This document shows positions 358-22,060 of a DNA stretch of 35,083 bases, piece by piece. Within the stretch, counting starts at the first letter, position 1. The number at the start of each line of letters is the position of its first letter. A program made the translations under genes and the position numbers. The stretch comes from a bacterium (GTDB lineage: Bacteria > Patescibacteriota > Minisyncoccia > Phycocordibacterales > Phycocordibacteraceae), in the NCBI GenBank assembly GCA_023264495.1, contig JAHFMM010000004.1, positions 1 to 35,083 on the forward strand, written 5' to 3'. The notes beneath the pieces are model-generated. The model saw nothing but the letters and a program-made list of their open reading frames with translations, searched no databases and was not told where the DNA came from.

Positions 358-1437
358 TTACAGGGCGTGTGATTTTAATAATGGGTCTACGTCGAGGGCT
401 GTCTGTTCTATTAATCCGTGTAGAATCCCCAACCTTTCCGTATTGTATGAGAAACTCCCCCACGAGTTCTCATCTGTTCTATCCATATAAGCTCGCTCAT
501 TACATTCAAGCTGGATTGCATTGATGCCGTACTGCTCATGATTTGATCCCCAAAACTTCACATTGTGTACGCCCTTCATATAGTGATTCCGTACGAACAA
601 TGGCCCCCCGACATCTTTGGAGATTAGATTTCTTTGTTCTTCAGACAGTGCATTATAGTTCTTCTGCAACGCCTGCTCAAACGCGTCAATGATGTCTGCA
701 TCGCATCCTTCTCCTTCTCTCGTACCAGTAATAAACATTGGTAGTCCTTCGGGGTTTTCTATGCCGTAGTGATCATAAAACGGTTTTAGATCTCCGGTGA
801 CCGGGAATGAGTGCCCGTCGAGGATAAGAACTCTTTGTTTTGTTGCATCAGTACGTCTATCAGAGAGTGTCCCGACTGCACCCATGATGGTATTGTAATA
901 GGGTAAGTAGTAGCGTTCTGCGAGAGACTGTATCTCCTCGGGAGTTGGTTCGAGACCTTCTTTATATATCGGTCCGAAGTCTATCCCCTCTTTCCATAAA
1001 ATAGTTCCGGGAGCTTCCCCCGACTCCGGTTTCTTATGAATGTCGAATGATGGTTCTCTGTTTGGATCGACTACGAATCGTGTTATGCCGAACTGCGCCC
1101 ACGGTATCTTCTCACTCTTGAAGATCTCTGGGGTACCGAGGTCGAGAAGCGGGAGAGTACGATCACCTTCTTCTGTAAGTCGATTCTTAAATTCAAGTAG
1201 TGCGTTCTCTCCAGCGTGCGGAATACCAATAACTATGTTTGGACAATTTGCTTGTGTAAGTGGTCTAAAACCCTTTGTTACCGCGTCTTCGCCTCGTATC
1301 TCGTGTTTTCTCATTTCAAGTCGAGAAGGAAGGCCGACTGCTTCCATAACGTTGTAAACTGGCTGCAGTTGCTCTCGGGATTCTATACGGCGCTGAGTAT
1401 CAGCGAAAACAAACCTCTGTGGGGGATGTTCCGACAT
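358..1437 (-). CDS. N-formylglutamate amidohydrolase (FGase) family hydrolase, long form (359 aa)
   Basis: ORF track 359 aa. Family-typical motifs appear in the expected order: IGIPHAG, VVDPNRE, ILDGHSFP, AIQLECNE. The substrate cannot be inferred. Confidence 0.7.
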   Translation of the reverse strand: MSEHPPQRFVFADTQRRIESREQLQPVYNVMEAVGLPSRLEMRKHEIRGEDAVTKGFRPLTQANCPNIVIGIPHAGENALLEFKNRLTEEGDRTLPLLDLGTPEIFKSEKIPWAQFGITRFVVDPNREPSFDIHKKPESGEAPGTILWKEGIDFGPIYKEGLEPTPEEIQSLAERYYLPYYNTIMGAVGTLSDRRTDATKQRVLILDGHSFPVTGDLKPFYDHYGIENPEGLPMFITGTREGEGCDADIIDAFEQALQKNYNALSEEQRNLISKDVGGPLFVRNHYMKGVHNVKFWGSNHEQYGINAIQLECNERAYMDRTDENSWGSFSYNTERLGILHGLIEQTALDVDPLLKSHAL

Positions 1438-1449
1438 ACATTGATTATA

Positions 1450-2226
1450 TCATGCCCCTTCTTGCTGGATCTCCTCGATGACTGCCATAGGGACGATTTC
1501 ATCGAGTGTGTAGTCACCCTTCTTGTAGGTGATGCGCATGACTACTTCTCCATTTGTCTTCACAAAAGTCGCATCAAACCCCTCGACATATCCGAATCCG
1601 TTGTTTCCCGCTACCTTGAGTAGCTGGTCACGCTCCGCGACCCCCTTCAGCTTCTCCACAACCTTCAGCAAGAAACATTCTTGGATGGTGCCGTGCGTTG
1701 CGAGAATGCGCTCGAAGTCGTGCTTCTCATTGTCAGGATTCACGCTCTTTTCAAGTACGGATGCGCCTCGAGAGGCGGCGTCATAGTTGCGATGGATGAT
1801 GTTCGCGACGTTTGCTGCCATGCGCGAATAGGTGCTCGACGCGGTATCGCCGCTCTCTCGCGCGAGCGCGTCGCTCTCATGCACGAGGAACGAGAGCGCT
1901 TTGCCTGCAAGATATGCTTCGTTAAAACTGTTCCCATATCGCGTGTCGTTGATGACAAAATCAAGCTTCTCATTTATGCGGACCTTCCCTACCCCGAGAT
2001 CTTCGGGACTCGTTGCAGCATCTTGGGTCGCGGCAGTAGCAGCCGTCTCGTGAGTGCGGACGCGCGGTGAGCCGACCACGTGCGCATAACGCATGTCGAG
2101 CGGATTCTCGAATTTCTCGGCGGCTAGCGCGCGACCCTCAGGCGTGATCTGGACGTCCTTATCATCCTTCTCAGGAGTTTTCTCCTTTATCGAATGTCGA
2201 ATAAAATGAAGAACGACTTTCGGCAT
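1450..2226 (-). CDS. histidine phosphatase (phosphoglycerate-mutase-like) superfamily protein
   Basis: ORF 1450..2262. VVLHFIRHS is an RHG-type catalytic motif variant, and GSPRVRTHETA matches the SP..R..QTA-like motif. I place the start at ATG 2226 (MPKVVLHF) because GGGAGAG lies immediately upstream; the ORF-track start at 2262 has no SD. The C-terminal ~100 aa are unassigned. Confidence 0.7.
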   Translation of the reverse strand: MPKVVLHFIRHSIKEKTPEKDDKDVQITPEGRALAAEKFENPLDMRYAHVVGSPRVRTHETAATAATQDAATSPEDLGVGKVRINEKLDFVINDTRYGNSFNEAYLAGKALSFLVHESDALARESGDTASSTYSRMAANVANIIHRNYDAASRGASVLEKSVNPDNEKHDFERILATHGTIQECFLLKVVEKLKGVAERDQLLKVAGNNGFGYVEGFDATFVKTNGEVVMRITYKKGDYTLDEIVPMAVIEEIQQEGA

Positions 2227-2266
2227 CGTCTCTCCCGCTGTCTTTTGTTTTGGCCATTCCATACAG

Positions 2267-2304: not shown

Positions 2305-2874
2305 CTATTTCAGCATCTGGGTTATCAGTAAGGATTCTTTATCATACGCATCGAGCGACATCCATGTGCTCGCGAACTCCCGTATCAGCTCGAGGATATT
2401 CTTCGGATCAAGCGTGACCTGTTCAGGAAGGAGCTCTTGGATACCCGCGACCGACTTCAAGAACGCATTGTAGTTATGAGCGATCTGTTTGCGGTTTATC
2501 GTATAGCCCTTGGTAATATGCTCACGCAACGTCCTCGTCGCCCATTGCCGGAATTGAGTCGCTGTCTTTGAGTTGACTCGGTAGCCCACAGACAGAATCA
2601 TATCCAAGTTATAGTGCTGTATCTCGCGTTCGATCTCCCTCTTCCCTTCCTTTTGAACTATCCGGAATTCCCGGACAGTTGAAGTTTCTGCCAATTCCTT
2701 TGTTCGATAAATATTCCTTATGTGTTCACTGATAGTACGCACATCAACACTGAAAGCCAAGGCAATTTGAGCCTGAGTTGCCCAGAGTGTCTCACGCGAG
2801 GTGTCACCTCGCAGCTCGATTGCTCCGTTCTTCGCCTGATATACGACCAGAGTATTTTTAATTCGTTTTTTCAT
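2305..2874 (-). CDS. RhuM-family protein, short/truncated form (189 aa; N-terminal DNA-binding-like half only)
   Basis: LWATQAQIALAFSVDVRTISEHIRNIY, FRIVQKEGKREIEREIQHYNLDMILSVGYRVNSKTATQFRQWATRTLREHITKGYTIN is the conserved RhuM core as I remember it. The ORF stops after DAYDKESLLITQMLK, where full-length members (~330 aa) continue into a Fic/DOC-like half. Confidence 0.75.
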   Translation of the reverse strand: MKKRIKNTLVVYQAKNGAIELRGDTSRETLWATQAQIALAFSVDVRTISEHIRNIYRTKELAETSTVREFRIVQKEGKREIEREIQHYNLDMILSVGYRVNSKTATQFRQWATRTLREHITKGYTINRKQIAHNYNAFLKSVAGIQELLPEQVTLDPKNILELIREFASTWMSLDAYDKESLLITQMLK

Positions 2875-2916
2875 CGCTTTATTCTATCCTGCTTTTTCTA
2901 TAATTCGCACCACCCA

Positions 2917-3216
2917 TCAAGCCGTCATGAGTCGAATCGCAAACGGCATGAAATAGGCCTTTATGTTCTGTGGGCTGATATGAAGCTCCGAGACAGAGTC
3001 GCCGACAGCGTGAATAGCCTGTGAGAGCATTTCGATCTCGGCAAGTCTCGGCCGCATGTCGGGAGAAGTCTTAATCTCGTCAAGCATGCGGTCTGCTCGT
3101 AGCGTAGCTCCTTGAAGCAAGACCTCATCATTTTTCTCTTTGGCTGCAATAATCCGCGACACCTCGGCACCGAGGTTTGCCATCAGGAACAGAGAGGTTC
3201 TTTTAGAGTCGTTCAT
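2917..3216 (-). CDS. hypothetical protein (99 aa, predicted helical)
   Basis: ORF track; co-directional and directly upstream of the RhuM-like gene; composition looks coding-like; I recognise no family. Confidence 0.5.
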   Translation of the reverse strand: MNDSKRTSLFLMANLGAEVSRIIAAKEKNDEVLLQGATLRADRMLDEIKTSPDMRPRLAEIEMLSQAIHAVGDSVSELHISPQNIKAYFMPFAIRLMTA

Positions 3217-3297: not shown

Positions 3298-6200
3298 CTA
3301 ATGTTCATATTTTTCAATTATCCTCACCACGCCATTATCCGCATCGACCTCGACCAGATCGCCGTCGTGCAGGACTTGCGTGGCAATCTTGGTAGCCATC
3401 ACGCACGGTTTCTTGAGTTCGCGGCTCGTAATAGCAGCATGGGATACTAAACCACCCTCGTCGGTCACGATGGCGGCGCATCGTATCATGGCAGGCATGA
3501 AGTCAGGAAGACTCATGGGAGAGACAAGAATGTCGCCCTCATTGCATTTTGAGATGTCGTGTCGCGACTTAACTATCCGTACGATTCCTTGCGCGTGCCC
3601 GGGTTGCGCACACACGCCTTTCAAAACGCCATCTGCGGATATCGAAGAAATAGTATCTCGTTTGAGATCAAATCCAAGTCGCGCCCCAAGTTCTTCTGCC
3701 GATTCGCCTGCATACAAAGTATCTTGTGCCAAGCAATATTTTTGCGCTCGGGCAGCGAGTACTTCTTCTGAAGGTATGCTGCCGTTCATCACTTCGTCGA
3801 TAAGAATATAAGAAACAAGAGTGCCGAGATGCGGGTAGGCGTGTGTGAATGAATCGTGCAAGACCCTGTCGATCTCAGGGACGAGCTTCTCTCCATATTT
3901 CCTTACGGCAAGCAGCTCGGTGAGTTCATCGCTTTTTTCTCCATGCTCTTCTGCATTCTCGATAAGGAACCATGTGGCTTCAAGAATATTCCAAGCATAG
4001 GTTGCATCCTTGATGAATCCAGAGAGTCCCGACAGAGCTAGTGGCGTCTTTGATTCAAATGCGGGTCTTAGTTTGTCATATGAAGCGACAGCTTCTTTCA
4101 ATATCCATGCAAGGAAAGAAGGATCCTCTACTATTCTCTTCTGCAATTCTTCTTTCACCCAATTGATACCTTCGAAGTCGTACCAGCACGTGGTGCTCGT
4201 GCCATCCCAGTCGAAGACGACATAGGGATCAGCGGGTTGTGACTTTGATGTCCATGCTTTGACGGATGTCTTCTCGGCCCTATTCCAGATTTGAAATGTT
4301 GCGAGCATGAAGAGACGTTCGAGGTACTTCTCAAGTACCGGTTTCTTTTGCTCGATAATTCGCACCACGCCGTTATCAGCATCGACCTCGACCAGGTCAC
4401 CGTCTTTCAAGACTTGCGTGGCGATTTTGGTGCCGATGATGCAGGGCTTCTTCATCTCGCGTGCGACGATGGCCGCATGGCAGACGATGCCGCCCTCGTC
4501 GGTTACAAAAGCGGCTGAGCGATGCATTGCGTCGATAAAGTCAGGGGTTGTCATTGGTGAGACTATGATGTCGCCCTCCTTCACTTTCTGCGCCTGAGCT
4601 CGGTTCTTTACGATCCGAACTGGCCCACGCGCCCTCCCAGCACAGGCGGTCTGACCAGATATCTCAGTCCCATCCCACGCGTTAGTTATCAGATCATTAA
4701 ATTCGTATTCCGGATGTTTTTCTGCAAAGACCGTCAGAGATACTGTCTCAAGGTCTCTCCCATCGAGAAGAATAGCTCCGGAGAGTCGTGCGCGAAGATC
4801 TTCTTCTGGCGGCAAAGTCACAAACTCATGCGGCAAAACGACCTCAGCAATTCTGGAATCGTATCCAGCTGCCACGACACGCTCACGAGCAAAGGCGTCA
4901 TTCCGCGCAAAGAATTCATCATCTTTGCGAATCTCAATAGCAAGATCCTTTACTTCTTGTGGGGTACGTTCGTCGTTACCGGCGTAGTAGATGAGCGAGA
5001 TATTTGCATTGCCGAGCTCCACGAGAGCTACATATTCGGCCATCTTCACAGGATCGGAAAACTCTCTACCCTCCCAATAGGGCTGGATATTCTCGAGTAC
5101 TTCTCGATGTGAGTCGACGATTCGCTGCATGAACCCTATCCCCTTCTTATTTTCTTCGAGCAGTGCGTCGAGGAACCATTCGACCGCTTTTTTGTTTTCC
5201 CAGATCTGCACATTATCGCCGGTTGTCGCGTGTATGACGACGGGTCGGTACGGATTCCCCTTCCCGAGGGATAGATAATTATCGCCTGCCATAACGGCTC
5301 CATAAATTCCTTGCATCAAGAATGTAGTATCGCGTTCTATCGTCTTTTCAAACTGCACCATCTCCGTATTTCCATTTGTCGATTTCTCTAATATCCGCAC
5401 GACGCCGTTATCAGCATCGACCTCGACCAAGTCGCCGTCTTTGAGAACCTTCGTGCAATTCCCCGTGCCAACAATGCATGGCTTTTTGAGCTCACGAGCA
5501 ATGATAGCTGCATGAGAAGTCACACCGCCCTCCTCAGTAACAAAAGCAACTGCTCGTTCCATAGCAGAGATATAGTCGACCATCGTTGTTCGTGCCACAA
5601 GCACCGACTTACTTGTGACTTTCCCAAGATCGCTCTTACCATACACGAGTGCGACTTTGCCTATCGCAATACCCTTGAAGGCCGACATGCCTTTAATGGG
5701 TCCGTCAGAATCTTCTGTGTGTAGAACCAATTTAGAAACGACCTCCATTTCTTTTTCATCCGTAATTACCCTCGTCTCCTCTGGGCTTCGGTAGTAGACG
5801 TAACGAAACACTCGTCGTGCCATTTCATCTTTATTTGGAACAGAAGAACCGTTTAAATAACTCAAGATTTCTTGATTTGTCATGCTAACAACTTCTCTCA
5901 TACTCCACCTTTCTCCCGTATCTTGTACGAGATTGTCTGCAAGCATTTTGAAGACATTACGAAATGGGGTTTGTATTTTCTTGAAAAGATCTACTCGGTC
6001 TGTTCTTAGGAAGACATAGTGATTTATCAATTCTGCGTAGACTCGTGTTGTCGGATTTGTTATCTTCTCAAGCATTTGAGTATACCGTTCAGTATTATGC
6101 CGTATCCCCTCGAAGAGGTCTTCTCTTTCTTTATGAGCCGTGTCAGGCGTAAGTTTCTTCAACTCTGATTCGAAGTACTTTTCGTCGTACAAATCTTCAA

Positions 6201-8889
6201 CGTAAGAATACTCTCCATACCATCCAAATTGATCAGCAAGTCCTTGAGATGCTTGCGAAATATCTTGTCCGCTAATAACACAGTCACAAATGGCGATTCT
6301 CATTTTTTGATATTCGTGGAGTTGAGTCGGGGAACTAATTGCCTCGCGCATTTCTTCGGCCTCGCTCCCAAACTCGTTATTGAGTCGTTCTATAAAAAGA
6401 GGGTCGAGCACTTTCTCAATTGCAAATGGTACCCATACGTAATCAGAAAGTTCTACACACAATCGTTCAAACAAGATAAAAGCATTTTTGATATCCTCTT
6501 TTCCCGAACCAACGTGAGCAAAAGTTGTGATAGCCTCTTCGTATTTAGATACCAAGTCCTGATATCTCTTCAGATGCTGTGTGAGTTTCTCTTTAGAATC
6601 AACTGCTTCAATGACTTTCTCATATAGGGCGTTCATCATCTCTTCTGAAAGATGAAGTGATCGATTATTGCCTTCGAGAGGGATTGAGACGACTCCTGTC
6701 TTCTGGAGTCCATATTCCTGGAGAAACATGTATACCGCCTCGTCTCTCTGCACGGTCTGTGGGCGTGACGCCAAGAACACCGTATCCATAATGAATTCTG
6801 GGAGTCCTTCTTGAAAATGGATCTCATTCCCCGTATAGGTCTCCAAAATCCGCACGACGCCGTTATCAGCATCGACCTCGACCAAGTCGCCGTCTTTGAG
6901 GACTTGTGTGGCAAACTTGGTACCGATTATACAAGGTTTATTCATCTCGCGCGCGATAATCGCAGCGTGACAAAGTAACCCTCCTCCATCGGTGACAATC
7001 GCCCCCGCTTTCTTCATGAGGGGAACAAAATTTGGATCCGTCATTCCGGTCACTAAAATATCTCCCTCGTCGAGCACGGCACTTTCATAGTCAGCGATAA
7101 CACGACACTTCCCTCGCACAACACCTGGATATCCTATAGTTCCTTTAATACCGTCTTTCGTGCTTACCGAAGAAAACCATTGTTGTTCAATTTGATCGAC
7201 AACATCCGCATCTAGTATACGTAGGCCTGTGCCGCTCGAGGAGAGATAAATTCCACATTTAGTGCGACGCTTCAAAAGATTTGCCGATGAAGGAAAGTCG
7301 TCTTTTTTCTGCGATGCGAGCAATTCCTCGAGAGTAAGAAAAGAAATTTCTTCGAATGCATATCCCTTAAATGTGGCTGAGGCCGATTTGATAATTTCGT
7401 TAATCTTCTTATCTGCTGTACCAAAAAAGTTTTCTGAATATTTTCTTGTCTCCTCAAGCGCAGTGAAGGCGGCACTGTCTTTCTGAGGGTCCAGGAAATT
7501 TGCTGCTGTTTTTGTAGCAACCTGATATGCGGTATAGGTATCGTAGAGACTTTGTATGTGAGCCGTGTTATCAAGAAGATTCTCGAACGAAAGATCCTGT
7601 ATCGCCGACGTGATTTCGTCTGCAATGTTCTTAAACGCAACAGTGTTTTTTTGCAGATAGGTATGATCTCGCATCTTTTCTGCAAGATATGTTCCGACCT
7701 CCTCGTAGCTGTTGATTGGCAGATACGCAGATGCAACTCCGTCTTTATAGACTACATATACAAAATCTATATTTTTGCCAAAAATCTCTTTGAATTTTTT
7801 AAAATACCCCTTTCCGGCAAATGAAAGATGTAGGAGTGAAAACATTCCTTCCCAGTCATTCTGACAGTCAGTGCTCTTTATTTTTTCTATCACTCCATCA
7901 TCAACATCTTTAGATTTGGGTTCGCTCAAGGTGGTGATCGGGCGGGATTGGACGATATAGAAAGCGCCCTGCGCAAAGGCCCATTCGATGTCGCAGGGGA
8001 AGCCGTAGTGGTTCTCAATCTTGAGGATGAGCTCGGAGAGCTCGAGGATCTGTGTTTCAGTGAGAACTTGCGATGATGCCTGTGGCTCTGCAATATCGCG
8101 CCACACATTCGCTTGCCCTGAGCCTGTCGAAGGGCCTCTCCCATCGACACGATAGAGCGCCCGAGTCTGGGTTGAAACATTCGTATCAATAATCCTCCTC
8201 GGCTCCTTCTCGACAACATATGAGTCGGGAGTGACCGAGCCCGAGACGATCGCTTCGCCAAGGCCATAGCCTGCCTCTATGATGAGCTGATTCCTATCCT
8301 CCGTCACCGGGTGGACAGAGAAGGCGATGCCGGAGACTTCTGATTCAACCATCTTCTGCACCACGACTGCCACCGAGATCTTGGTCTGGTGAAGCTCCTT
8401 CTCGAAGCGGTAGAAGATGGCGCGGGGCGTGAAGAGCGATGCCCAACAATGCTGTACGTTCTCGAGGAGGGTGTCTTCGGTCGTATTGAGGAAGCTGTCG
8501 AGCTGCCCTGCCCAGGCGGCGCTCGCTGAGTCTTCGGCAGTGGCGGAGGAGCGGACGGCGACATACTTCGCATCGAGTTCTGCAAAGAAGGTCTGGATCT
8601 CCTGCTTGATATCCTCAGGCATCTTCGCTGCGAGAATGAGCGCCTGGATTTTCTCTGAAGCACCCTCTACGGTATGCATCTCTTCTGGCTTTACGGTGTG
8701 GAGAATGCTGTCTATCTCGACATTAAGATCAGTCTCTTCGAGAAAGCGCTCGAAGGCCTCAGAGAGGATGACGAAGCCCGGAGGGACAGGGATGCCTGCC
8801 TGGGTCATCTCGCCGAGGGAGGCGCCTTTGCCGCCGGCAATATTTGCATCGTGTCTTGAGAGTTCGTTAAAAGGCTTAATCCAGGCCAT
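3298..8889 (-). CDS. giant multi-module PEP-synthase/rifampin-phosphotransferase-like protein: 1 x PPDK_N ATP-grasp head + 4 x [variable domain + PEP-utilizer phosphohistidine swivel domain], no TIM barrel
   Basis: Single uninterrupted 1,863-aa ORF. The N-terminus reads [39 protein letters not shown]...[11 protein letters not shown]...[11 protein letters not shown]. Four swivel copies each end in [16 protein letters not shown] and each retains the GG...HAAI..RE phospho-His motif. Confidence 0.9.
   Translation of the reverse strand: [1863 protein letters not shown]
3301..3627 (-). other. domain: phosphohistidine swivel copy 4 (aa ~1755-1861, His1817)
   Basis: [87 protein letters not shown], followed by EKYEH-stop. 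Confidence 0.8.
3320..3372. repeat. 53-nt intragenic repeat, copy D (about 44/53 identical to copy A by my alignment)
   Basis: atcctcaccacgccattatccgcatcgacctcgaccagatcgccgtcgtgcag; encodes L1840-I1857. Confidence 0.8.
4351..4668 (-). other. domain: phosphohistidine swivel copy 3 (aa ~1408-1513, His1471)
   Basis: [87 protein letters not shown]. Confidence 0.8.
4358..4410. repeat. 53-nt intragenic repeat, copy C (47/53 identical to copy A by my alignment)
   Basis: attcgcaccacgccgttatcagcatcgacctcgaccaggtcaccgtctttcaa; encodes L1494-I1511. Confidence 0.85.
5386..5700 (-). other. domain: phosphohistidine swivel copy 2 (aa ~1064-1168, His1126)
   Basis: [86 protein letters not shown]. This is the most diverged copy. 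Confidence 0.75.
5393..5445. repeat. 53-nt intragenic repeat, copy B (100% identical to 6848..6900)
   Basis: Same 53-mer; encodes L1149-I1166. Confidence 0.95.
6838..7152 (-). other. domain: phosphohistidine swivel copy 1 (aa ~580-684, His641)
   Basis: [87 protein letters not shown]. Confidence 0.8.
6848..6900. repeat. 53-nt intragenic repeat, copy A (100% identical to 5393..5445)
   Basis: atccgcacgacgccgttatcagcatcgacctcgaccaagtcgccgtctttgag, compared base by base with copy B. Encodes L664-I681 ([18 protein letters not shown]). Confidence 0.95.
7924..8889 (-). other. domain: PPDK_N / ATP-grasp nucleotide-binding head (aa 1-322)
   Basis: [51 protein letters not shown] motifs in canonical order. 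Confidence 0.8.
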
Positions 8890-8926: not shown

Positions 8927-10282
8927 CTAGAGATACGAGAGCGGATTCAGGTACGCGTCGAGTGAGGCAACGGGCATCGAGGCGTTCGCGCAGGCAGTCC
9001 CCGAGACGCCCTTGAATTGCCCGAGGGTTTGGATCTGGGTGCCTTCAGTCGCATATACGCCGAAGTGGAGGTGTGGCCCGGTCGCGTAGCCCGTCATGCC
9101 CGAGAGTCCGATCACCTGCCCGACTGCGACTGACTGCCCCTTTGAGACATCAATCTCAGAGAGGTGGGCATACATCGTGTTGAGGCCGTTGCCATGCACA
9201 ATCATGACCCATTTGCCGAATGAGTAGCACTGATGTCCCTTCACATCGTGAGCAAGGTCGGTGTTGCCGGTCGCAAGCACAGTGCCGCCAAGCGCGGCGT
9301 GGAGCGGCGTGCCGATTGGTGCGGCGATGTCGATGGCGTTGTGGCCGTGATTGTTATAGATCTGCGGGTTTGCGGTCGCGAATGGCGTAGTGCCAAAGTA
9401 TTGCGTGATACAGAAAAGATTCCCGAACGTACTTTTCCGATTTGCACAGTCGAACATAAAAGCGGAACTGAAAGGCCAGGTGAGCACGCCGGAACCGACT
9501 TTAGGCAGCAGGCCTGGATGCACAATGAGATTCAACTGCGCCTGAAGGCTCGTGAGCTCTGATTCGAATGATTGTTCGGCCGCTTGCTTTTGCGCGATGA
9601 GTTTCTGATAATTTGATTCTTGGTTCTTCGTTTGCGAGAGAAGTTGCTGCTGATACGTCTTACTTGCATCGATCGAACGCTTCTGAAGCGAGAGATCCTT
9701 TTGAAGCGAGACAAGATCCGCTTTTGCCGCAGCGACGCTGTCGCGATTGGCGGCGAGCTCGGTACGTATCGAACGCAAGGTCTCAATAGTCTTTGTCAGA
9801 CTGGTATTGAGTTGCATCGCTTGATCGGCGGTTCGCCACGCATCACCGAATGACTGCTTTGAGATGAGAGTCGCGATAAGCGGCGTTTCATCGCCAATGG
9901 CGATATCTCGGAGCATCTTCGCGATGACATCTTGGTTCTCGGCGATGGAGGACTCTTTGTTGTTGATAGAAAGAGAAAGACGCTGTATCTCAAGATTTGC
10001 TGACGATATCTTGCTCTGCGTTACTCGTATCTGCGATGTAAGCTGTTTCTGCGAGATGGTGAGCGTATCGATGGTTGATTGGAGCGTATTCTTTTTCTCG
10101 CCAAGCGCATCGAGCTGTTTCTGAAATGCTGCTATCTCTGCTTTGAGCGCATCTACTTGTTGATTATTCGCATCGATCTTTGATTGGATATCAGATGTTG
10201 CATCAGCGTGCGCTAGAAGCGGTGCTACAACAAGACTTGTCGAAAAAATAAGGAGAATGGGGAGAATCCTAAACACTTTCAT
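8927..10282 (-). CDS. M23-family peptidoglycan DD-metalloendopeptidase with N-terminal signal/anchor and long coiled coil (EnvC-like layout)
   Basis: C-terminal HNAIDIAAPIGTP (HxxxD) and GYATGPHLHFGVY (HxH). The N-terminal half is Q/L/S-rich heptad-like. I start at ATG 10282 (MKVFRILPILLIFSTSLVVAPLLAHA, signal-like). The 41 extra codons in the ORF track overlap gltX and look non-coding. Confidence 0.85.
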   Translation of the reverse strand: MKVFRILPILLIFSTSLVVAPLLAHADATSDIQSKIDANNQQVDALKAEIAAFQKQLDALGEKKNTLQSTIDTLTISQKQLTSQIRVTQSKISSANLEIQRLSLSINNKESSIAENQDVIAKMLRDIAIGDETPLIATLISKQSFGDAWRTADQAMQLNTSLTKTIETLRSIRTELAANRDSVAAAKADLVSLQKDLSLQKRSIDASKTYQQQLLSQTKNQESNYQKLIAQKQAAEQSFESELTSLQAQLNLIVHPGLLPKVGSGVLTWPFSSAFMFDCANRKSTFGNLFCITQYFGTTPFATANPQIYNNHGHNAIDIAAPIGTPLHAALGGTVLATGNTDLAHDVKGHQCYSFGKWVMIVHGNGLNTMYAHLSEIDVSKGQSVAVGQVIGLSGMTGYATGPHLHFGVYATEGTQIQTLGQFKGVSGTACANASMPVASLDAYLNPLSYL

Positions 10283-11613
10283 TATGAGAGTATAGCAATT
10301 GCTTTCTGCACGCGCGAAAGAGCCGTTTCTTTGCCCAAGATAGCGATAAGCGTGAACGGATCGGGGGACCGTTCTTGCCCGGAGAGCGCATAACGAAGAG
10401 GCCATAAGACTGCTCCGCGACCTCCCTTCCCTACTGCCTCTGCGGCATCGGCAAGCGGCATAAACGTCTCTTTTACCGCCTCGGCGGATACGCCCCCAGA
10501 AAGGCTCTGTAAGGGGTCGAGGAGGCTCTCTAGAGCTCCTTTCGTCATACCTCTGCGTTCAGCTGGCTCCTTGACGGTGAGAATAGTCGAGTCAAGGCTC
10601 GGCTCACTGAAGATGCACGAGAGCTCGCCGGTGAGCATCTCGCGCACCTCAGCAAAGGTCTGCGCGCGCTCCTTGAGAAGCGGGACGATCTGCCGCAGCC
10701 TCTCGGTATCGGGCGCGACGAGATTGCCGCGCTCGATGAAGTCGTCGACCGAGAGTTTGCGCATCCAGTGCTGATTGACTGAGCGGAGCTTCGTCTCGTC
10801 GAGAATAGCCCCGCTCTTCTGTACGCGCTCAAGAGAGAATCGCTCGATGAGTTCGGAGAGAGAAAAGAATTCTTCGTCGGTCCCCGGATTCCAGCCGAGG
10901 AGTGCGAGATAATTGATAAGCGCTTCAGGGAGATATCCCTCGTCTCGATATTGCTCGAGTGAGGCGGCGTGCTTCCTCTTTGAGAGCTTGGAACGATCGG
11001 GAGCCAAGATGAGCGGAATGTGTGCGTACTGCGGCCGAGGGAATCCGAGTGCCTCTTGGATAAGGATCTGACGGGACGTATTGGAGAGATGCTCTTCGGC
11101 GCGGATGATGTGCGTCACGCCCGCATCGTTGTCGTCGGCGACGACGGCGAAGTGATACAACGGATCGTGCATCGAACGTGCGATGACGAAATCGCCGAGC
11201 TCGGTCGTGTCGAATGATACCTCGCCGCGGATGAGGTCGGTGAAGGTGATGCGCGTACCAGGATTCTTGAGGCGTACGACTTCGACCTCTCGCGAGGGGT
11301 CGTCTCGTGAAGGTTCTTTCGAAACATATGCCTTCCCTTCGCTAACAAGAGTGGCTAATAGCTCGCGATGGCGATTGGCATGTTCGGACTGGATGTAGCG
11401 CGCATCGGGCAAGAGACCGCACCATTCGAAATCCTTCCAGATGGCATCCACCCACTCGGGTTTATTGCGCTCTTTATCAGTATCTTCAATCCGGACGAAA
11501 TACGTTCCGCCCTGCTGCTTCGCGAAAAGGTAATTGAAAAGAGCCGTGCGGACCGTACCGATGTGCATCTGACCGGTTGGCGAGGGAGCAATGCGAGTGA
11601 CGACAGCGGTCAT
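10282..11613 (-). CDS. gltX: glutamate--tRNA ligase (short form, 443 aa)
   Basis: RIAPSPTGQMHIGTVRTALFNYLFAKQQGGTYFVRIEDTD (HIGH region) and KLSKRK (KMSKS). The TAA stop overlaps the downstream ATG by one base (TAATG). Confidence 0.9.
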   Translation of the reverse strand: MTAVVTRIAPSPTGQMHIGTVRTALFNYLFAKQQGGTYFVRIEDTDKERNKPEWVDAIWKDFEWCGLLPDARYIQSEHANRHRELLATLVSEGKAYVSKEPSRDDPSREVEVVRLKNPGTRITFTDLIRGEVSFDTTELGDFVIARSMHDPLYHFAVVADDNDAGVTHIIRAEEHLSNTSRQILIQEALGFPRPQYAHIPLILAPDRSKLSKRKHAASLEQYRDEGYLPEALINYLALLGWNPGTDEEFFSLSELIERFSLERVQKSGAILDETKLRSVNQHWMRKLSVDDFIERGNLVAPDTERLRQIVPLLKERAQTFAEVREMLTGELSCIFSEPSLDSTILTVKEPAERRGMTKGALESLLDPLQSLSGGVSAEAVKETFMPLADAAEAVGKGGRGAVLWPLRYALSGQERSPDPFTLIAILGKETALSRVQKAIAILS

Positions 11614-16533: not shown

Positions 16534-17301
16534 CTATTCGTACCGAGGAGTAGCTGAAGCTGAGGTATGAGAGATCTGGATGTCGCCATGCCGTTCATGC
16601 TGGTCGGCAGCGACCGCGCCCTGCTTCACGAGCTCGAGGAGAGCGAGAAAGGAGACAATGACCTCCACCCTCTCCCTCGTATTGCCCGCTTGTGGTGAGC
16701 CTGTCGAACCCACAAACTCTTTGAAAGAGAGCGTGAGCGCGCTCTGTACCCGCTTCGCGAGCCGGTCCATGATTTCTTCGATCGAGACGAGCGGCTTCAC
16801 GCGTGTCTCGGGGAGATTCTCTACTTCTTCACGCGCGGCAAGGACGCGTGCGAGCGCCTCGGCGAGCGCCTCTTTGCTCAAATCGCCGGAGGGAGAGAAG
16901 AATGGTTCCGGAACACGCACGCCAGCAGGAAGAAGCATGGTCTTGCCGAAGATGCGCGCGAGTTCGCGCGAAGCGTCACGGACTTTCTCATACGCCTCGA
17001 GACGCCGTTTCAGGTCTTCGACATCAGCGTTCTCTTCTTCAGTCAGATCGAGGTCGGGTATGAGTGATTTTGATTTGATCAGGAGAAGTGTCGCCGCAAT
17101 TTGTATGAAATTTGCCGTCTCTTCGACAGGGAACATTTCTTGAGCGCGCACGTGCTGGATGAAATCTTCGGTAATTAAGGCGAGTGCCAAGTCGTTGATG
17201 AGAAGCTTCCTTGCGGCGATAAGATCGAGCACTACCTCAAACGGACCTTCATACGACGAAGTCTTGATAGAGAATCCCGTGCGCGGCGCTACGATTTCCA
17301 T
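16534..17301 (-). CDS. scpA: segregation and condensation protein A (kleisin)
   Basis: YEGPFEVVLDLIAARKLLINDLALALITEDFIQHV matches the ScpA N-terminal signature. It overlaps the pepA end by 13 nt, so the start is slightly uncertain. Confidence 0.85.
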   Translation of the reverse strand: MEIVAPRTGFSIKTSSYEGPFEVVLDLIAARKLLINDLALALITEDFIQHVRAQEMFPVEETANFIQIAATLLLIKSKSLIPDLDLTEEENADVEDLKRRLEAYEKVRDASRELARIFGKTMLLPAGVRVPEPFFSPSGDLSKEALAEALARVLAAREEVENLPETRVKPLVSIEEIMDRLAKRVQSALTLSFKEFVGSTGSPQAGNTRERVEVIVSFLALLELVKQGAVAADQHERHGDIQISHTSASATPRYE

Positions 17302-18701
17302 TGTTCGATAAAATGAGTAAGGAGTCGAACTGGCGCGCCTGCCGCACCCTTCGCAAGTTCATCACCCGGTGCGGTAGTCATCCTCGGCGCAATGTCGAGA
17401 TGCGCCCACGGACAATCGAGCTCTTTGGCAAACTGCCAGAGGAACATCCCGCCCTCAATCGTGCCGCCATAGCGCCCTCCAGGGCCGTTTGAGATATTCG
17501 CGATATCAGCAAAGGTGCCTTTCACCATATCTTCATATTCATCCCAAAGCGGGAGCCGCCACACATAGTCGCCAGACGCTTCCCCGCTCTCGCTCACGCG
17601 AGTCGCGAGAGCATCATCGCGGGTAAGGAGAGCGCTTGCGTGGAGACCAAGCGCAGAGAGTGCTGCACCAGTGAGTGTCGCAACATCGATGACGACAGAT
17701 GGTTTGAACCGTTTTGCATAGGTAAGCGCATCGGCGAGGATAAGGCGGCCTTCAGCATCAGTGTTTAAAACCTCAATCGTTTTTCCCGAAAGCGATTTTA
17801 AGATATCGCCCGGCCGATACGCATTGTTCCCCGGCATATTCTCGACTGAAGGAATGAGCCCGATGACCCGCTTCTTAAGTTTCAATCGAGCGGCAAGCGC
17901 CACGGTATGGATAACAGCCGCGGCACCTGACATGTCCATGTGCATCTCATAGATGCCGCTTGATGGCTTCAGGTTGAGTCCACCGCTATCGAAGGTAACG
18001 CCTTTTCCGGCGAGCACGATAGGGTCCCCTTTTCCTCCCTTGTAGTCAAGGATGGTGAAAGTCGGCGCTTCGGTCGAACCTTTTGCGACACCAAGCAGGG
18101 CGCCCATGCCGATTTTCTGCATCTCTTTCTTCCCGAGTATCATTACTTTGACCGGAAGACCCCTGACCGCGTCCTTTGCCGCGCGCGCAAGGAGTGTCGG
18201 CGTCATATCGCCGCCCGGCATGTTGGCGAGCGAGCGACACGCATTCACCGCCCTACCGATCTCTTGTCCCTTCATGACGGCTTTTGCGAGCGAGGCTGAC
18301 GAGGCCCCGCACAGGAGGATCTCATCAACGGCGGTCCATCCTTCTTTCGGCCTCGTCTTAAATACCGTGAATTCGAAGTTTGCCATCTCAAAGTTCTCGG
18401 CAGCGAGCTGGAACAATTCTTCACGAGGATACGGCTTCAGCTTTTTTGCCGTTGCGAGAGACGCAAGATCAAGCGCAATCTTCTTGCGCTTATTTGCTTT
18501 GGCGGCATTCACAACAGCTCGGCAGAGCACGATGCATTGGCGCCGATTCAGCTCATCCTGCTTCCCTACGCCGATCTCAAGTGTCTCAATATCTTTCTCG
18601 CGAACAAAAGTGCGTGTCCCTTTTGACGTATCGGTAAACTGGATACGCGTGTATCCTTTTGGCGCTTTTGTCAGATCTCCTTTTTGTATCGCGATGTTCA
18701 T
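17289..18701 (-). CDS. pepA: leucyl aminopeptidase (M17)
   Basis: GKGVTFDSGGLNLKP and NTDAEGRLILADAL catalytic-domain signatures. Confidence 0.9.
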   Translation of the reverse strand: MNIAIQKGDLTKAPKGYTRIQFTDTSKGTRTFVREKDIETLEIGVGKQDELNRRQCIVLCRAVVNAAKANKRKKIALDLASLATAKKLKPYPREELFQLAAENFEMANFEFTVFKTRPKEGWTAVDEILLCGASSASLAKAVMKGQEIGRAVNACRSLANMPGGDMTPTLLARAAKDAVRGLPVKVMILGKKEMQKIGMGALLGVAKGSTEAPTFTILDYKGGKGDPIVLAGKGVTFDSGGLNLKPSSGIYEMHMDMSGAAAVIHTVALAARLKLKKRVIGLIPSVENMPGNNAYRPGDILKSLSGKTIEVLNTDAEGRLILADALTYAKRFKPSVVIDVATLTGAALSALGLHASALLTRDDALATRVSESGEASGDYVWRLPLWDEYEDMVKGTFADIANISNGPGGRYGGTIEGGMFLWQFAKELDCPWAHLDIAPRMTTAPGDELAKGAAGAPVRLLTHFIEQWKS

Positions 18702-20121: not shown

Positions 20122-21012
20122 TCAGATTCGCGGTAAAGAACGGTGCAGGAAATATCGGAAATTATTGCCCAAGACGCCTTGCAGGACGTCATCAGAAAAG
20201 CCAGCATGGTTTTGCAATGCCTTCTTCTGTGCATCGATAATCGACATATCCAGGAATTGGCAATCGCTCCCGATACCAACACGTTTCGATCCCATCATTT
20301 GAGTAGCGTATTGCACATGATAGACGAACTCTCGGGGGTAATAACTTCCCTTTGCGGCGATGATAAAGGTAATCGCGGGAATGCCGCAATACCCGTCAAG
20401 ATCGGCGACTGCGCTGAGGACGGCATTCGAAACATTCCGCGGACTCATATACACAGAATGACATCCTGAATGCGACAACATCACCTTCACCGGTAGATCT
20501 TCCCGGTGGATCAGGCGCATCGCATTCATTGCCGTCTGTTCGTTGGCATGCGACAAATCGAGGATGATGCCGAGCTCGGCAAATTGCCGGATCAGCCACT
20601 CGCCGCGCTGTTTCAAGCCGCCGTGAGTCGCATAGCCCGACCCGTACTCGTTCTCAGATTGGTATGCGATTGCTCCGATGCGCAAGCTGTCATCGCGAAG
20701 TGCTCGTAGCACATCGCTCGTCATCTTGCACGGCATGTGCTGCAGGCCGAGGATGACCTTGATACCGGCGAAACATTCCTCCACATCGCTTTTCCGGCGG
20801 GCGAAGCTCACGAGCGGATTTCGCAGGATCTGCTCGGCGAATATCTGGTGTACCTTGAGCGCCTCTTCAGCATTCTCGATCATCGGCGGTACGCTGGTTA
20901 TGAGCGCCAGATCTATCGCTGGCTGTGTCGGCAGGACAGGTTGCTTCCATGGCAGTCCGAAGAATGCTTGGGAATCAGCACGGAATACCGTGCGTTTGTT
21001 TTCAGTTTTCAA
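20122..21012 (-). CDS. divergent membrane-dipeptidase (M19)-like protein, paralog 1 (296 aa), canonical metal ligands partly missing
   Basis: The core aligns by eye to renal-dipeptidase-type proteins: VILGLQH...VLRALRDDSLRIGAIAY, GIILDLSH, VMLSHSG, PRNVSNAVL, VGIGSDC. TTG start at 21012 is preceded by AAGGAGG with a 5-nt spacer. Confidence 0.7.
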   Translation of the reverse strand: MKTENKRTVFRADSQAFFGLPWKQPVLPTQPAIDLALITSVPPMIENAEEALKVHQIFAEQILRNPLVSFARRKSDVEECFAGIKVILGLQHMPCKMTSDVLRALRDDSLRIGAIAYQSENEYGSGYATHGGLKQRGEWLIRQFAELGIILDLSHANEQTAMNAMRLIHREDLPVKVMLSHSGCHSVYMSPRNVSNAVLSAVADLDGYCGIPAITFIIAAKGSYYPREFVYHVQYATQMMGSKRVGIGSDCQFLDMSIIDAQKKALQNHAGFSDDVLQGVLGNNFRYFLHRSLPRI

Positions 21013-21064
21013 TCGAGCCTCCTTTTCGTTGGCGGTTTATCTGCATTCCCCTTGCGAGTCCTCA

Positions 21065-22060
21065 TCAGACCCGCGGCAAAGAACGCTCAAGAAAGTGCCG
21101 GAAACTCCGGCCGAGGATATCGTTGGCGACACTCGAGTTGAGTGTCGTGCGCAATTCACGTTCGAGAAGCTCGAATAAAGCCGACCCTCGGTGGATGGCC
21201 TCAACTGAACGATCGGGGAAATATGCCCCGAGCGCCTCGTCGTTGCCGACCAATTCGAGCATGCGTTCGAAGTTCTTCTTGGCCGCAGTGAGCGTCATAT
21301 TCACATGCGGACAATCGCTTCCGATGCCGACCTTTCCCGGCCCCATCTCGTGCACGGCGTGTTCAACGTGCCGCATGAACTTGAGTAGTGAGGCACAGCA
21401 CGATCCCGCATCGTGCAAGAGGAACGTGATGAGCGGGATACCGATGTATCCATCAAGCGCGGAGAGGCGCAAGAGCACCTCGTTCGATATGTTGCGTTTA
21501 TGCTTGTACACCGCACTGCATCCCGAGTGTGATGCCATCACGCCGCACTCGAGCCCTTCACTCCAGATGAGCTCGAATGCGTCCATGGCCGTCTCCTCAT
21601 TTGCATAAGAGATATCGAGCGTGATGCCGAGCTTGTCATACTGCCGGATGAGCCACTTGCCGCGTTCTGTGAGACCGCCCTCGGCCGCGTATCCTGAGCC
21701 GTAGGCAGTCGCTCCTTTGTAGGCGATAGCACCGAAGCGAAGGCCGTCGTTGTAGAGGGCGCGAAGCTGGCCTTCAGTCATCTTGTTTGGCACATGCTGC
21801 AGGCCGAGCACGACGCCGATATCCGAGCTGAGCGGGTTCGCAAGATCGTCCTTGCGACGGACAATACATACTCCATTGTTGCGAGTAACCTGACCGACGA
21901 ACGCTTGGTGCGCATGAATGACTTCAATGGGGTCATTCACAAATGGCGGCACGCTTGTGAGGAGCGCAAGATTGAGTTGCGGCCCCTCGCCGGGGATGAA
22001 GATCGGCGGCTTGCCCTGAGGGGCGAAAAACGCCTGCGAGTCTGCGAAATATGTTTTCAA
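21065..22060 (-). CDS. divergent membrane-dipeptidase (M19)-like protein, paralog 2 (331 aa)
   Basis: Same core: VVLGLQH, LRFGAIAY, GITLDISY, VMASHSG, KRNISNEVL, VGIGSDC. TTG start at 22060 is preceded by GGGAGG with a 5-nt spacer. It shares the N-terminal ADSQAFF motif with paralog 1. Confidence 0.7.
   Translation of the reverse strand: MKTYFADSQAFFAPQGKPPIFIPGEGPQLNLALLTSVPPFVNDPIEVIHAHQAFVGQVTRNNGVCIVRRKDDLANPLSSDIGVVLGLQHVPNKMTEGQLRALYNDGLRFGAIAYKGATAYGSGYAAEGGLTERGKWLIRQYDKLGITLDISYANEETAMDAFELIWSEGLECGVMASHSGCSAVYKHKRNISNEVLLRLSALDGYIGIPLITFLLHDAGSCCASLLKFMRHVEHAVHEMGPGKVGIGSDCPHVNMTLTAAKKNFERMLELVGNDEALGAYFPDRSVEAIHRGSALFELLERELRTTLNSSVANDILGRSFRHFLERSLPRV

Follow-up and report, generated by a model that had tools for sequence, protein, structure and literature searches.

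What would a protein do with one ATP-grasp head and four phosphohistidine swivel domains? The question is raised by an open reading frame (ORF) in contig JAHFMM010000004.1 of assembly GCA_023264495.1, from a bacterium of the Phycocordibacteraceae (Patescibacteriota). Positions 1 to 35,083 of this contig, the whole stretch of DNA analysed (35,083 nt), are hereafter referred to as the window. An earlier interpretation of the letters and their translations, made without database searches (the sequence-only reading), had placed a giant ORF of 1,863 aa at positions 3298–8889 and described it as a head followed by four tandem pairs of a variable domain and a swivel, in a layout resembling that of rifampin phosphotransferase (RPH). 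The ORF is present as described and lies on the minus strand, which that reading had omitted. Our analyses make it likely that Patescibacteria (the candidate phyla radiation, CPR) and DPANN archaea possess a modular dikinase system, "one loader, many modules", of which this ORF is the fully fused form; its shared ATP-grasp loader probably feeds four parallel, substrate-specific dikinase modules of the RPH type.

Domain architecture and integrity of the giant ORF

A Pfam scan of the 1,863-aa protein identified PPDK_N at aa 16–331 (E = 5.8e-98) and four stretches of PEP-utilizers (PF00391, E = 1.2e-96), with no match at E ≤ 0.1 to the triosephosphate isomerase (TIM) barrel PEP-utilizers_C (PF02896), exactly the composition predicted by the sequence-only reading. 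The remaining Pfam matches were sub-threshold noise over the swivels. The features of the ORF are as follows:

3298–8889, minus strand: whole ORF, head followed by four variable domain–swivel modules (1,863 aa plus stop, ATG start)
7915–8889, minus strand: ATP-grasp nucleotide-binding head (PPDK_N, PF01326), aa 1–325, with motifs GGKGASLGEM and VAVRSSATAED
7156–7914, minus strand: variable domain 1, aa 326–578, family F, short form of about 250 aa (HMM boundaries, clustering)
6838–7155, minus strand: swivel 1 (PF00391), aa 579–684, catalytic His641 codon at 6967–6969
5701–6837, minus strand: variable domain 2, aa 685–1063, family K, long form of 379 aa (AlphaFold2 model, Foldseek)
5383–5700, minus strand: swivel 2 (PF00391), aa 1064–1169, His1126 codon at 5512–5514
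4666–5382, minus strand: variable domain 3, aa 1170–1408, family A (the commonest family), short form (clustering)
4348–4665, minus strand: swivel 3 (PF00391), aa 1409–1514, His1471 codon at 4477–4479
3628–4347, minus strand: variable domain 4, aa 1515–1754, family E (related to A), short form (clustering)
3301–3627, minus strand: swivel 4 (PF00391), aa 1755–1863, His1817 codon at 3439–3441

According to the boundaries given by hidden Markov models (HMMs), the swivels are 106 aa each, every one directly following a variable domain, and the variable regions are 253, 379, 239 and 240 aa long; the lengths previously estimated for the second and third regions were thus retained, and those for the first and fourth (257 and 241 aa) were slightly revised. 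The phospho-acceptor histidine of the motif GG-x3-H-AAI is found in all four swivels at the positions noted earlier (H641, H1126, H1471 and H1817), and all four finish with the same 16-residue end, DGDLVEVDADNGVVRI, in agreement with the shared end reported before. The protein stops three residues past swivel 4, which leaves no space for a hidden TIM barrel; none was found, and no sequence remained unassigned.

The giant ORF is real and not an assembly artefact, since it is intact in an independent ENA contig (L081; sample ERZ27279563, k141) that is 99.76% identical to the window over 6,676 nt, with seven nucleotide differences and one amino-acid difference in the ORF. The identical 16-residue swivel ends, whose DNA matches exactly over as many as 53 nt, and the uneven GC content along the ORF are what would be expected if paralogous single-module genes had been concatenated through a shared repeat at the swivel ends. 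However, a join through this repeat would run into a stop codon rather than into the next variable domain, and the 53-nt repeat, the longest exact one inside the ORF, is shorter than the k = 141 used for the separate assembly, which has the same uninterrupted ORF. Moreover, multi-module homologs come from four sources (NCBI, JGI, ENA and Logan), with contigs as long as 0.9 Mb, and fused multi-module genes are present in 15 of the 80 species-representative genomes considered below. The probability of a chimera is therefore negligible.

A family of proteins with one head and two to seven modules

A search of 5.8 billion proteins yielded more than 1,100 relatives, the best 120 of which were taken for domain analysis with HMMs derived from the head and swivels of the giant ORF. 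These homologs are 1,027 to 3,111 aa long, and their only Pfam domains are PPDK_N and PEP-utilizers, together with swivel-like noise. All but one (119/120) consist of one head and two to seven modules; the odd one has two head stretches and four swivels. Three modules are most frequent (60 proteins), followed by two (26), four (21), five (9), six (2) and seven (1), and in nearly all the proteins the last swivel is followed by no more than a few residues. The strict histidine motif was matched by 373 of the 384 homolog swivels, and the histidine was kept in the 10 of the other 11 that were inspected. When a swivel profile was run against 1.84 billion representative proteins, the top 150 matches all had at least two swivels, with a maximum of six.

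The variable domains of the 120 homologs fall into two length classes, of about 240 and 375 aa. The 383 domains cluster into about 16 main families (A–P), which occur at any position and in many combinations, and 99 of the 120 homologs have no repeated variable-domain type. The giant ORF itself has the order F-K-A-E, four different families. Profile–profile comparisons (hhalign) linked the main families directly or via shared relatives, typically with probabilities of 90–100%, and the families holding the window's four variable domains had mutual probabilities of about 95–99.9%, in line with the earlier suggestion that these regions are deeply diverged copies of one domain. The short forms align end to end with the long forms, so the latter carry an insertion. 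These profile links indicate that all the variable domains belong to a single superfamily.

Two peculiarities were observed among the homologs. In P0024 (2,254 aa; swivels at 1204–1309, 1673–1778 and 2148–2253), tryptophan occupies otherwise invariant glycine positions (EEWGVTAH, AEWWITSH and DWDLVEVDADKW), a pattern that fits a code-25 gene (UGA = Gly; Gracilibacteria/Absconditabacteria) translated with code 4; if this is true, the family is also present in recoded CPR lineages. P0045 and P0071 (1,619 and 2,300 aa), both encoded on a 901,513-bp JGI contig and thus apparently from one genome, have near-identical heads (approximately the first 330 aa) followed by different modules, implying that the head may have been recently duplicated or homogenised while the cassette arrays diverged.

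The variable domains resemble the substrate domain of RPH

RPH (PDB 5HV1 and 5FBS; PMC4844700), an antibiotic-inactivating enzyme of the wider small-molecule dikinase family, has the same order of parts as a single module of the giant ORF together with the head: an ATP-grasp head, a helical substrate domain and a C-terminal histidine swivel, with no TIM barrel. Its rifampin-binding domain was described by Stogios et al. as having no known structural homologue (PMC4844700). We modelled variable domain 2 (aa 685–1063) with AlphaFold2 from an 11-sequence alignment (mean predicted local distance difference test score, pLDDT, of 91.7). The model is mostly helical, with a few short strands at its ends, and its top four Foldseek matches in the PDB were all Listeria RPH structures (5hv2, 5fbu, 5fbs and 5hv1), matched at the rifampin-binding domain with a probability of 1.0, template modelling (TM) scores of 0.45–0.51 and about 400 aligned columns; all further matches had TM scores below 0.22. 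The model of unit 1 (head, variable domain 1 and swivel 1; aa 1–687; pLDDT 80) had full-length RPH as its top match (E = 5.6e-33, about 900 aligned columns), followed by HpeI (9goj), the isolated RPH head (5hv6) and PpsA. RPH is thus the best and only specific structural match for both models, which supports the RPH-like layout proposed in the sequence-only reading. Variable domains 1, 3 and 4 are tied to variable domain 2 through the hhalign comparisons. Family-conserved basic/acidic motifs (R-K-x-x-E or R-x-x-R-x-D) are found 94–102 residues before each of the window's swivels (for example, ARKYSE at 481–486 and LRTDRVD at 961–967); in RPH, a catalytic Arg666-Glu667/Lys670 block lies about 100 residues before the swivel (PMC4844700).

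There are nevertheless clear differences from RPH. Each RPH head is accompanied by a single substrate domain and a single swivel, whereas the giant ORF has four of each, from four families. By sequence, its variable domains are not similar to the rifampin-binding domain, and their short forms measure about 240 aa, versus about 440 aa in RPH. The protein also scores far below the RPH cut-offs of NCBIfam (NF041857, 510 versus 999; NF000283, 357.7 versus 1,700).

Automatic annotation would name this protein a phosphoenolpyruvate (PEP) synthase (pyruvate, water dikinase), here with duplicated swivels. It exceeds the cut-off of the NCBIfam model NF005057, "phosphoenolpyruvate synthase" (751.9 versus 598), and its head plus swivel is closer by sequence to the archaeal PpsA 8a8e (435 bits) than to RPH (360 bits). 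The homology of these two parts to their counterparts in PpsA and PPDK is clear, and they presumably perform the same histidine-mediated β-phosphate transfer; among PDB sequences, the head matches those of both PpsA and RPH. However, the NF005057 score is obtained by adding up five partial stretches (the head and the four swivels), and this summation leads automatic pipelines to mis-name the genes of this family. Unlike PpsA and PPDK, the giant ORF has no PEP/pyruvate TIM barrel, and its swivels lie C-terminal to a second substrate domain, as in RPH; every residue is assigned to the head, the RPH-like variable domains or the swivels. The missing barrel excludes the identity of PEP synthase, and we attach almost no probability to this annotation.

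Split and fused forms across genomes

A single-protein pattern scan of genome contigs gave no matches. A scan seeded with an alignment and covering one genome for each GTDB species revealed relatives in at least 596 genomes, and the best 80 loci were analysed (designated by L numbers). They come mainly from Patescibacteria (Parcubacteria, Kaiserbacteria, Moranbacteria, Saccharibacteria and others). Archaea account for 19 records, mostly DPANN (Woesearchaeota, Nanoarchaeota, Iainarchaeum and Micrarchaeota), and about 12 are metagenome-assembled genomes labelled as other bacteria, such as Gammaproteobacteria, labels that are doubtful. Viral contigs contained only one weak, swivel-only locus, so the system is not phage-borne. 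The one-head, many-module architecture is common in ultra-small bacteria and archaea and largely confined to such symbionts.

The 80 loci can be sorted by the way in which head and modules are joined. In 41 loci, a free head of about 315 aa adjoins one to seven free genes for a variable domain and swivel (340–520 aa) on the same strand. The head is fused to at least two modules in 15 loci, 12 of them fully fused and three with extra free modules, and to a single module accompanied by extra free modules in seven; a fused head–module protein with at least two modules in the locus was therefore present in 22 of the 80 (12 + 3 + 7). The other 17 loci have a head fused to one module only within the region viewed. 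The survey suggested by the sequence-only reading thus recovered both separate module genes and fusions. The free and fused modules are drawn from the same variable-domain families: free-gene homologs were found for family F in L080, for A in L016, L073 and L040, and for E in L025 and L069, and family K also occurs as a free gene elsewhere. We regard this pattern of fission and fusion as the strongest evidence on how the giant protein is likely to work, as it implies that the head would have to load several different modules and could do so in trans. It strongly supports the earlier proposal of one head serving several pairs of substrate domain and swivel.

The sequence-only reading had left two mechanisms side by side, a multi-substrate phosphotransferase and an internal relay between histidines. 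In the latter, phosphate would pass from the head through swivels 1, 2, 3 and 4 in series to a single final acceptor, with the variable domains as spacers or regulators. Four tandem phosphohistidine carrier domains in one chain do resemble multi-step relays, and the near-identical C-terminal strand of the swivels might provide a common docking surface. This mechanism is disfavoured, however, because the modules are free-standing (occurring as separate genes), unordered and variable in number (one to seven), each is paired with its own RPH-like domain, and no terminal acceptor domain follows the last swivel. The homology of the variable domains to a substrate-binding domain and the direct transfer from swivel to substrate in characterised relatives also argue against it. 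A serial relay is accordingly very improbable, and the parallel, multi-substrate option is favoured.

Module turnover and probable recombination at the swivel ends

L084 is syntenic with the window, with the order FtsW-MurG-GluRS-peptidase, the dikinase system and then the phosphatase-like gene described below. The head in this locus is 70% identical to that of the window, whereas its variable domains have no BLAST similarity to those of the window. The L084 system consists of proteins of 1,292 and 366 aa, and the boundary between the two genes is TAA, 4 nt and ATG.

Base composition varies along the giant ORF. The head has a GC content at third codon positions (GC3) of 0.68, like that of neighbouring genes (0.63 ± 0.06), versus 0.38, 0.40, 0.49 and 0.47 for variable domains 1 to 4; the corresponding values for swivels 1 to 4 are 0.50, 0.52, 0.66 and 0.58. 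The low GC3 of the variable domains, relative to the head and the neighbours, suggests that the modules were imported from lower-GC donors.

Two segments of the ORF are identical over 53 nt:

6848–6900, minus strand: 3' end of swivel 1, identical to 5393–5445
5393–5445, minus strand: 3' end of swivel 2, identical to 6848–6900

This exact run includes 17 consecutive identical codons, despite an overall identity of only about 51% between the coding DNAs of swivels 1 and 2, and is probably the footprint of gene conversion or recombination. Five of the seven differences between the window and L081 within the ORF are synonymous third-position changes within 31 nt (4366–4396; codons 1498–1508), in the end motif of swivel 3, and at four of these five sites the window version agrees with swivels 1 and 2. 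The chance of finding five of seven differences within the four 48-nt copies of the motif is about 1e-6 by a rough binomial estimate, and the cluster looks like a gene-conversion tract. The pattern is repeated in other genomes, where exact runs of at least 25 nt were found in 12 of 216 swivel pairs within loci and in one of 397 pairs between loci; half of the 12 within-locus runs end 13–22 nt from the 3' end of the swivel.

Across the family, the end motif is conserved in the protein sequence as well. Protein-level conservation alone was rejected as a full explanation for the identical swivel ends, given the 17 identical codons and the clustered synonymous differences between strains. Taken with the DNA runs, this conservation indicates that both selection and recombination act on the motif, which is a plausible junction for module shuffling. 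Overall, modules are gained, lost, swapped, fused and split within short evolutionary times, a turnover to which recombination at the near-invariant 3' coding end of the swivels probably contributes.

A histidine-phosphatase-like partner

Clustering of the genes neighbouring the 80 loci revealed no conserved partner except a protein related to histidine phosphatases, which in the window lies downstream of the giant ORF:

1450–2262, minus strand: 270-aa putative member of the histidine-phosphatase superfamily, weak match to PF00300, with motifs IRHS, SPRVRTHETA and ATHG

The PF00300 match (E = 6.5e-5) covers only aa 18–80 and is just above the cut-off (23.1 versus 21.7 bits), and some homologs of this protein carry precomputed PF00300 annotation. 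Homologs are embedded in the arrays of L016, L021 and L060 (E values of 1e-32 to 1e-40), and L021 has a second phosphatase-like copy about 2.1 kb away. After profile iteration, His_Phos-like genes were found in 26 of the 80 loci, usually at a distance of 0–15 nt from the array and for the most part sharing its strand; in L082, as in the syntenic L084, such a gene directly follows the last module. The product of 1450–2262 is thus probably a third component of the dikinase system. SixA, a phosphohistidine phosphatase, belongs to the histidine-phosphatase superfamily, and by analogy the partner may reset the phospho-swivels or else act on the products.

Two partner-like genes each are present in L031, L021 and L080. 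In L082, a second, canonical His_Phos_1 gene (208 aa; 9931–10557, minus strand) immediately follows the His_Phos-like partner and is encoded on the opposite strand.

Proposed mechanism

We infer a mechanism in which the N-terminal head would bind ATP and phosphorylate the histidine of each swivel (H641, H1126, H1471 and H1817) via a pyrophosphoryl/phosphoryl-histidine intermediate, as in PpsA, PPDK and RPH, either within one polypeptide or between copies. Each phospho-swivel would then dock back on the helical, RPH-like domain just upstream and hand its phosphate to a substrate, presumably a small molecule, the predicted reaction for each module being ATP + X + H2O -> AMP + Pi + X-P. The four different variable-domain families imply that four different substrates would be phosphorylated in parallel. 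The phosphatase-like protein encoded downstream would probably reset the phosphohistidines or act on the products.

The steps of this scheme have precedents. The RPH swivel shuttles between the two sites (PMC4844700). HpeHI, PpsAB (phenylphosphate synthase) and CreHI each consist of two separate proteins, an ATP-grasp protein and one made of substrate domain and swivel, and the former phosphorylates the swivel histidine of the latter; mutation of this histidine in HpeHI abolishes activity, and HpeH alone passes phosphate between substrates (PMC12167813). These two-component enzymes correspond to the split form found in 41 of our loci, and they show that a head can work in trans. They differ from the family described here in having one head per module, acting on phenolics and belonging to catabolic operons of free-living bacteria, as opposed to two to seven modules per head, an occurrence in CPR bacteria and DPANN archaea and, often, a His_Phos-like partner instead of carboxylases.

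A functional analogy, and no more than that, can be drawn with the phosphotransferase system (PTS), in which Enzyme I and HPr feed many sugar-specific Enzymes II, one loader thus serving many substrate-specific modules via phosphohistidine. Enzyme I shares the swivel domain with the giant ORF. Unlike the PTS, however, the giant ORF would use ATP rather than PEP as the donor, has no HPr, membrane component or transport function, and has unrelated specificity domains. Our limited literature search found two-component dikinases and no multi-swivel, one-head proteins in CPR bacteria or DPANN archaea, consistent with the earlier statement that no characterised enzyme has this layout. The RPH/HpeHI-type mechanism is already known; what appears to be new is the one-head, many-module layout, with its combinatorial fusion and fission and its phosphatase partner.

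Several observations weigh against parallel loading of RPH-type modules by a shared head. The variable domains had no sequence-level match in Pfam, NCBIfam (E ≤ 1) or the PDB, and the family-K profile, representing variable domain 2, gave only noise against PDB sequences (E ≥ 0.08). Their likeness to RPH in fold is remote (TM score of about 0.5, Foldseek E values of 2e-3 to 3e-2), and the pre-swivel motifs are likened to R666/E667/K670 of RPH by position only. Some of the loci scored as split could be frameshifted assemblies, and only about a third of the loci viewed contain the phosphatase-like partner. In cis, the farthest swivel would lie about 1,500 residues from the single head that has to load it.

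Antibiotics or xenobiotics, as for RPH, scavenged metabolites that would be trapped by phosphorylation, a role suggested for HpeHI, and compounds activated for ligation, as by PigC and RedH, are candidate substrates by analogy.

The last of these relates to an alternative in which the machinery is the same and the modules are not simple kinases. In ligases of the PigC/RedH type, phosphorylation activates a substrate for condensation, and glucan-water dikinases act on macromolecules; some modules might likewise act as ligases, and others might act on cell-wall or glycan polymers or on proteins. The prodiginine ligases PigC and RedH share the head and swivel with the giant ORF, in the same frame without a TIM barrel, and both the window and L084 place the system in a cell-wall and division block (MraY-FtsW-MurG...M23 peptidase). 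However, these ligases have a single module and other central domains, and their NCBIfam models are matched far below cut-off (about 460–510 versus 1,300–1,350). Except for the phosphatase-like gene, the loci have no conserved neighbourhood, and the nearest fold match is a small-molecule binding domain. We consider this alternative unlikely, if appreciably less so than the relay, and parallel phosphorylation of small molecules remains the preferred reading.

Genomic context of the window

The window is a core chromosomal block with all genes on the minus strand, in the order MreB...MraW-FtsI-Mur ligase...AspRS...MraY-FtsW-MurG-GluRS-M23 peptidase. The best named matches of the AspRS point to a Patescibacterium resembling Paceibacteria/Kaiserbacteria. 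The giant ORF had no match to a defence system in PADLOC, and tRNA and Rfam scans of the window were empty. The other features of note are as follows:

358–1437, minus strand: N-formylglutamate amidohydrolase-family gene (GC 0.46 and GC3 0.44, versus 0.56 and 0.63 for core genes)
2305–2874, minus strand: truncated RhuM-family gene (PF13310), with strong PADLOC PDC-S05/S23 matches
2917–3216, minus strand: 99-aa ORF without matches, between the giant ORF and the phosphatase gene
8927–10405 and 10282–11613, minus strand: mechanical ORFs of the M23 peptidase and GluRS, overlapping by 124 nt
17289–18701, minus-strand block: M17 leucyl aminopeptidase gene, adjoining the M19 pair
20122–22060, minus strand: tandem paralogous M19 membrane-dipeptidase genes (296 and 331 aa)

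In the 2305–3216 region, which separates the giant ORF from the phosphatase-like gene, L081 departs from the window, with a gap followed by sequence of 95.6% identity, versus 99.8%; the 99-aa ORF and the RhuM-like gene look like a small mobile or defence-gene insertion. The composition of the N-formylglutamate amidohydrolase-family gene suggests that it was possibly acquired at the end of the block. The M23 peptidase probably starts at a downstream start codon, and the M19/M17 peptide-scavenging cluster fits a host-dependent lifestyle.

Biological implications

The genomes of CPR bacteria and DPANN archaea measure about 1 Mb, and these organisms live in dependence on hosts; many of them nevertheless devote 3–9 kb to the genes described here. 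We tentatively suggest that these organisms may carry an undescribed, horizontally shuffled "kinase cassette array", composed of an ATP-grasp loader, two to seven fast-turnover, substrate-specific phosphohistidine modules (at least 16 families) and a dedicated partner of the histidine-phosphatase family. Such an array could be a general system, an ATP-driven, soluble counterpart of PTS logic, that traps scavenged host metabolites or neutralises host or competitor toxins by phosphorylation; this broader proposal is possible rather than probable on the present evidence. Annotation of the genes as "PEP synthase" could lead metabolic reconstructions to ascribe gluconeogenesis wrongly to CPR bacteria and DPANN archaea. 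The multi-module family extends the idea of a proto-resistome around RPH and provides a natural example of modular, recombination-driven enzyme assembly, and its split and fused forms are ready-made constructs for the study of trans-loading by a shared head. If each variable domain has a distinct specificity, the family would constitute a large, untapped reservoir of ATP-dependent small-molecule kinases.

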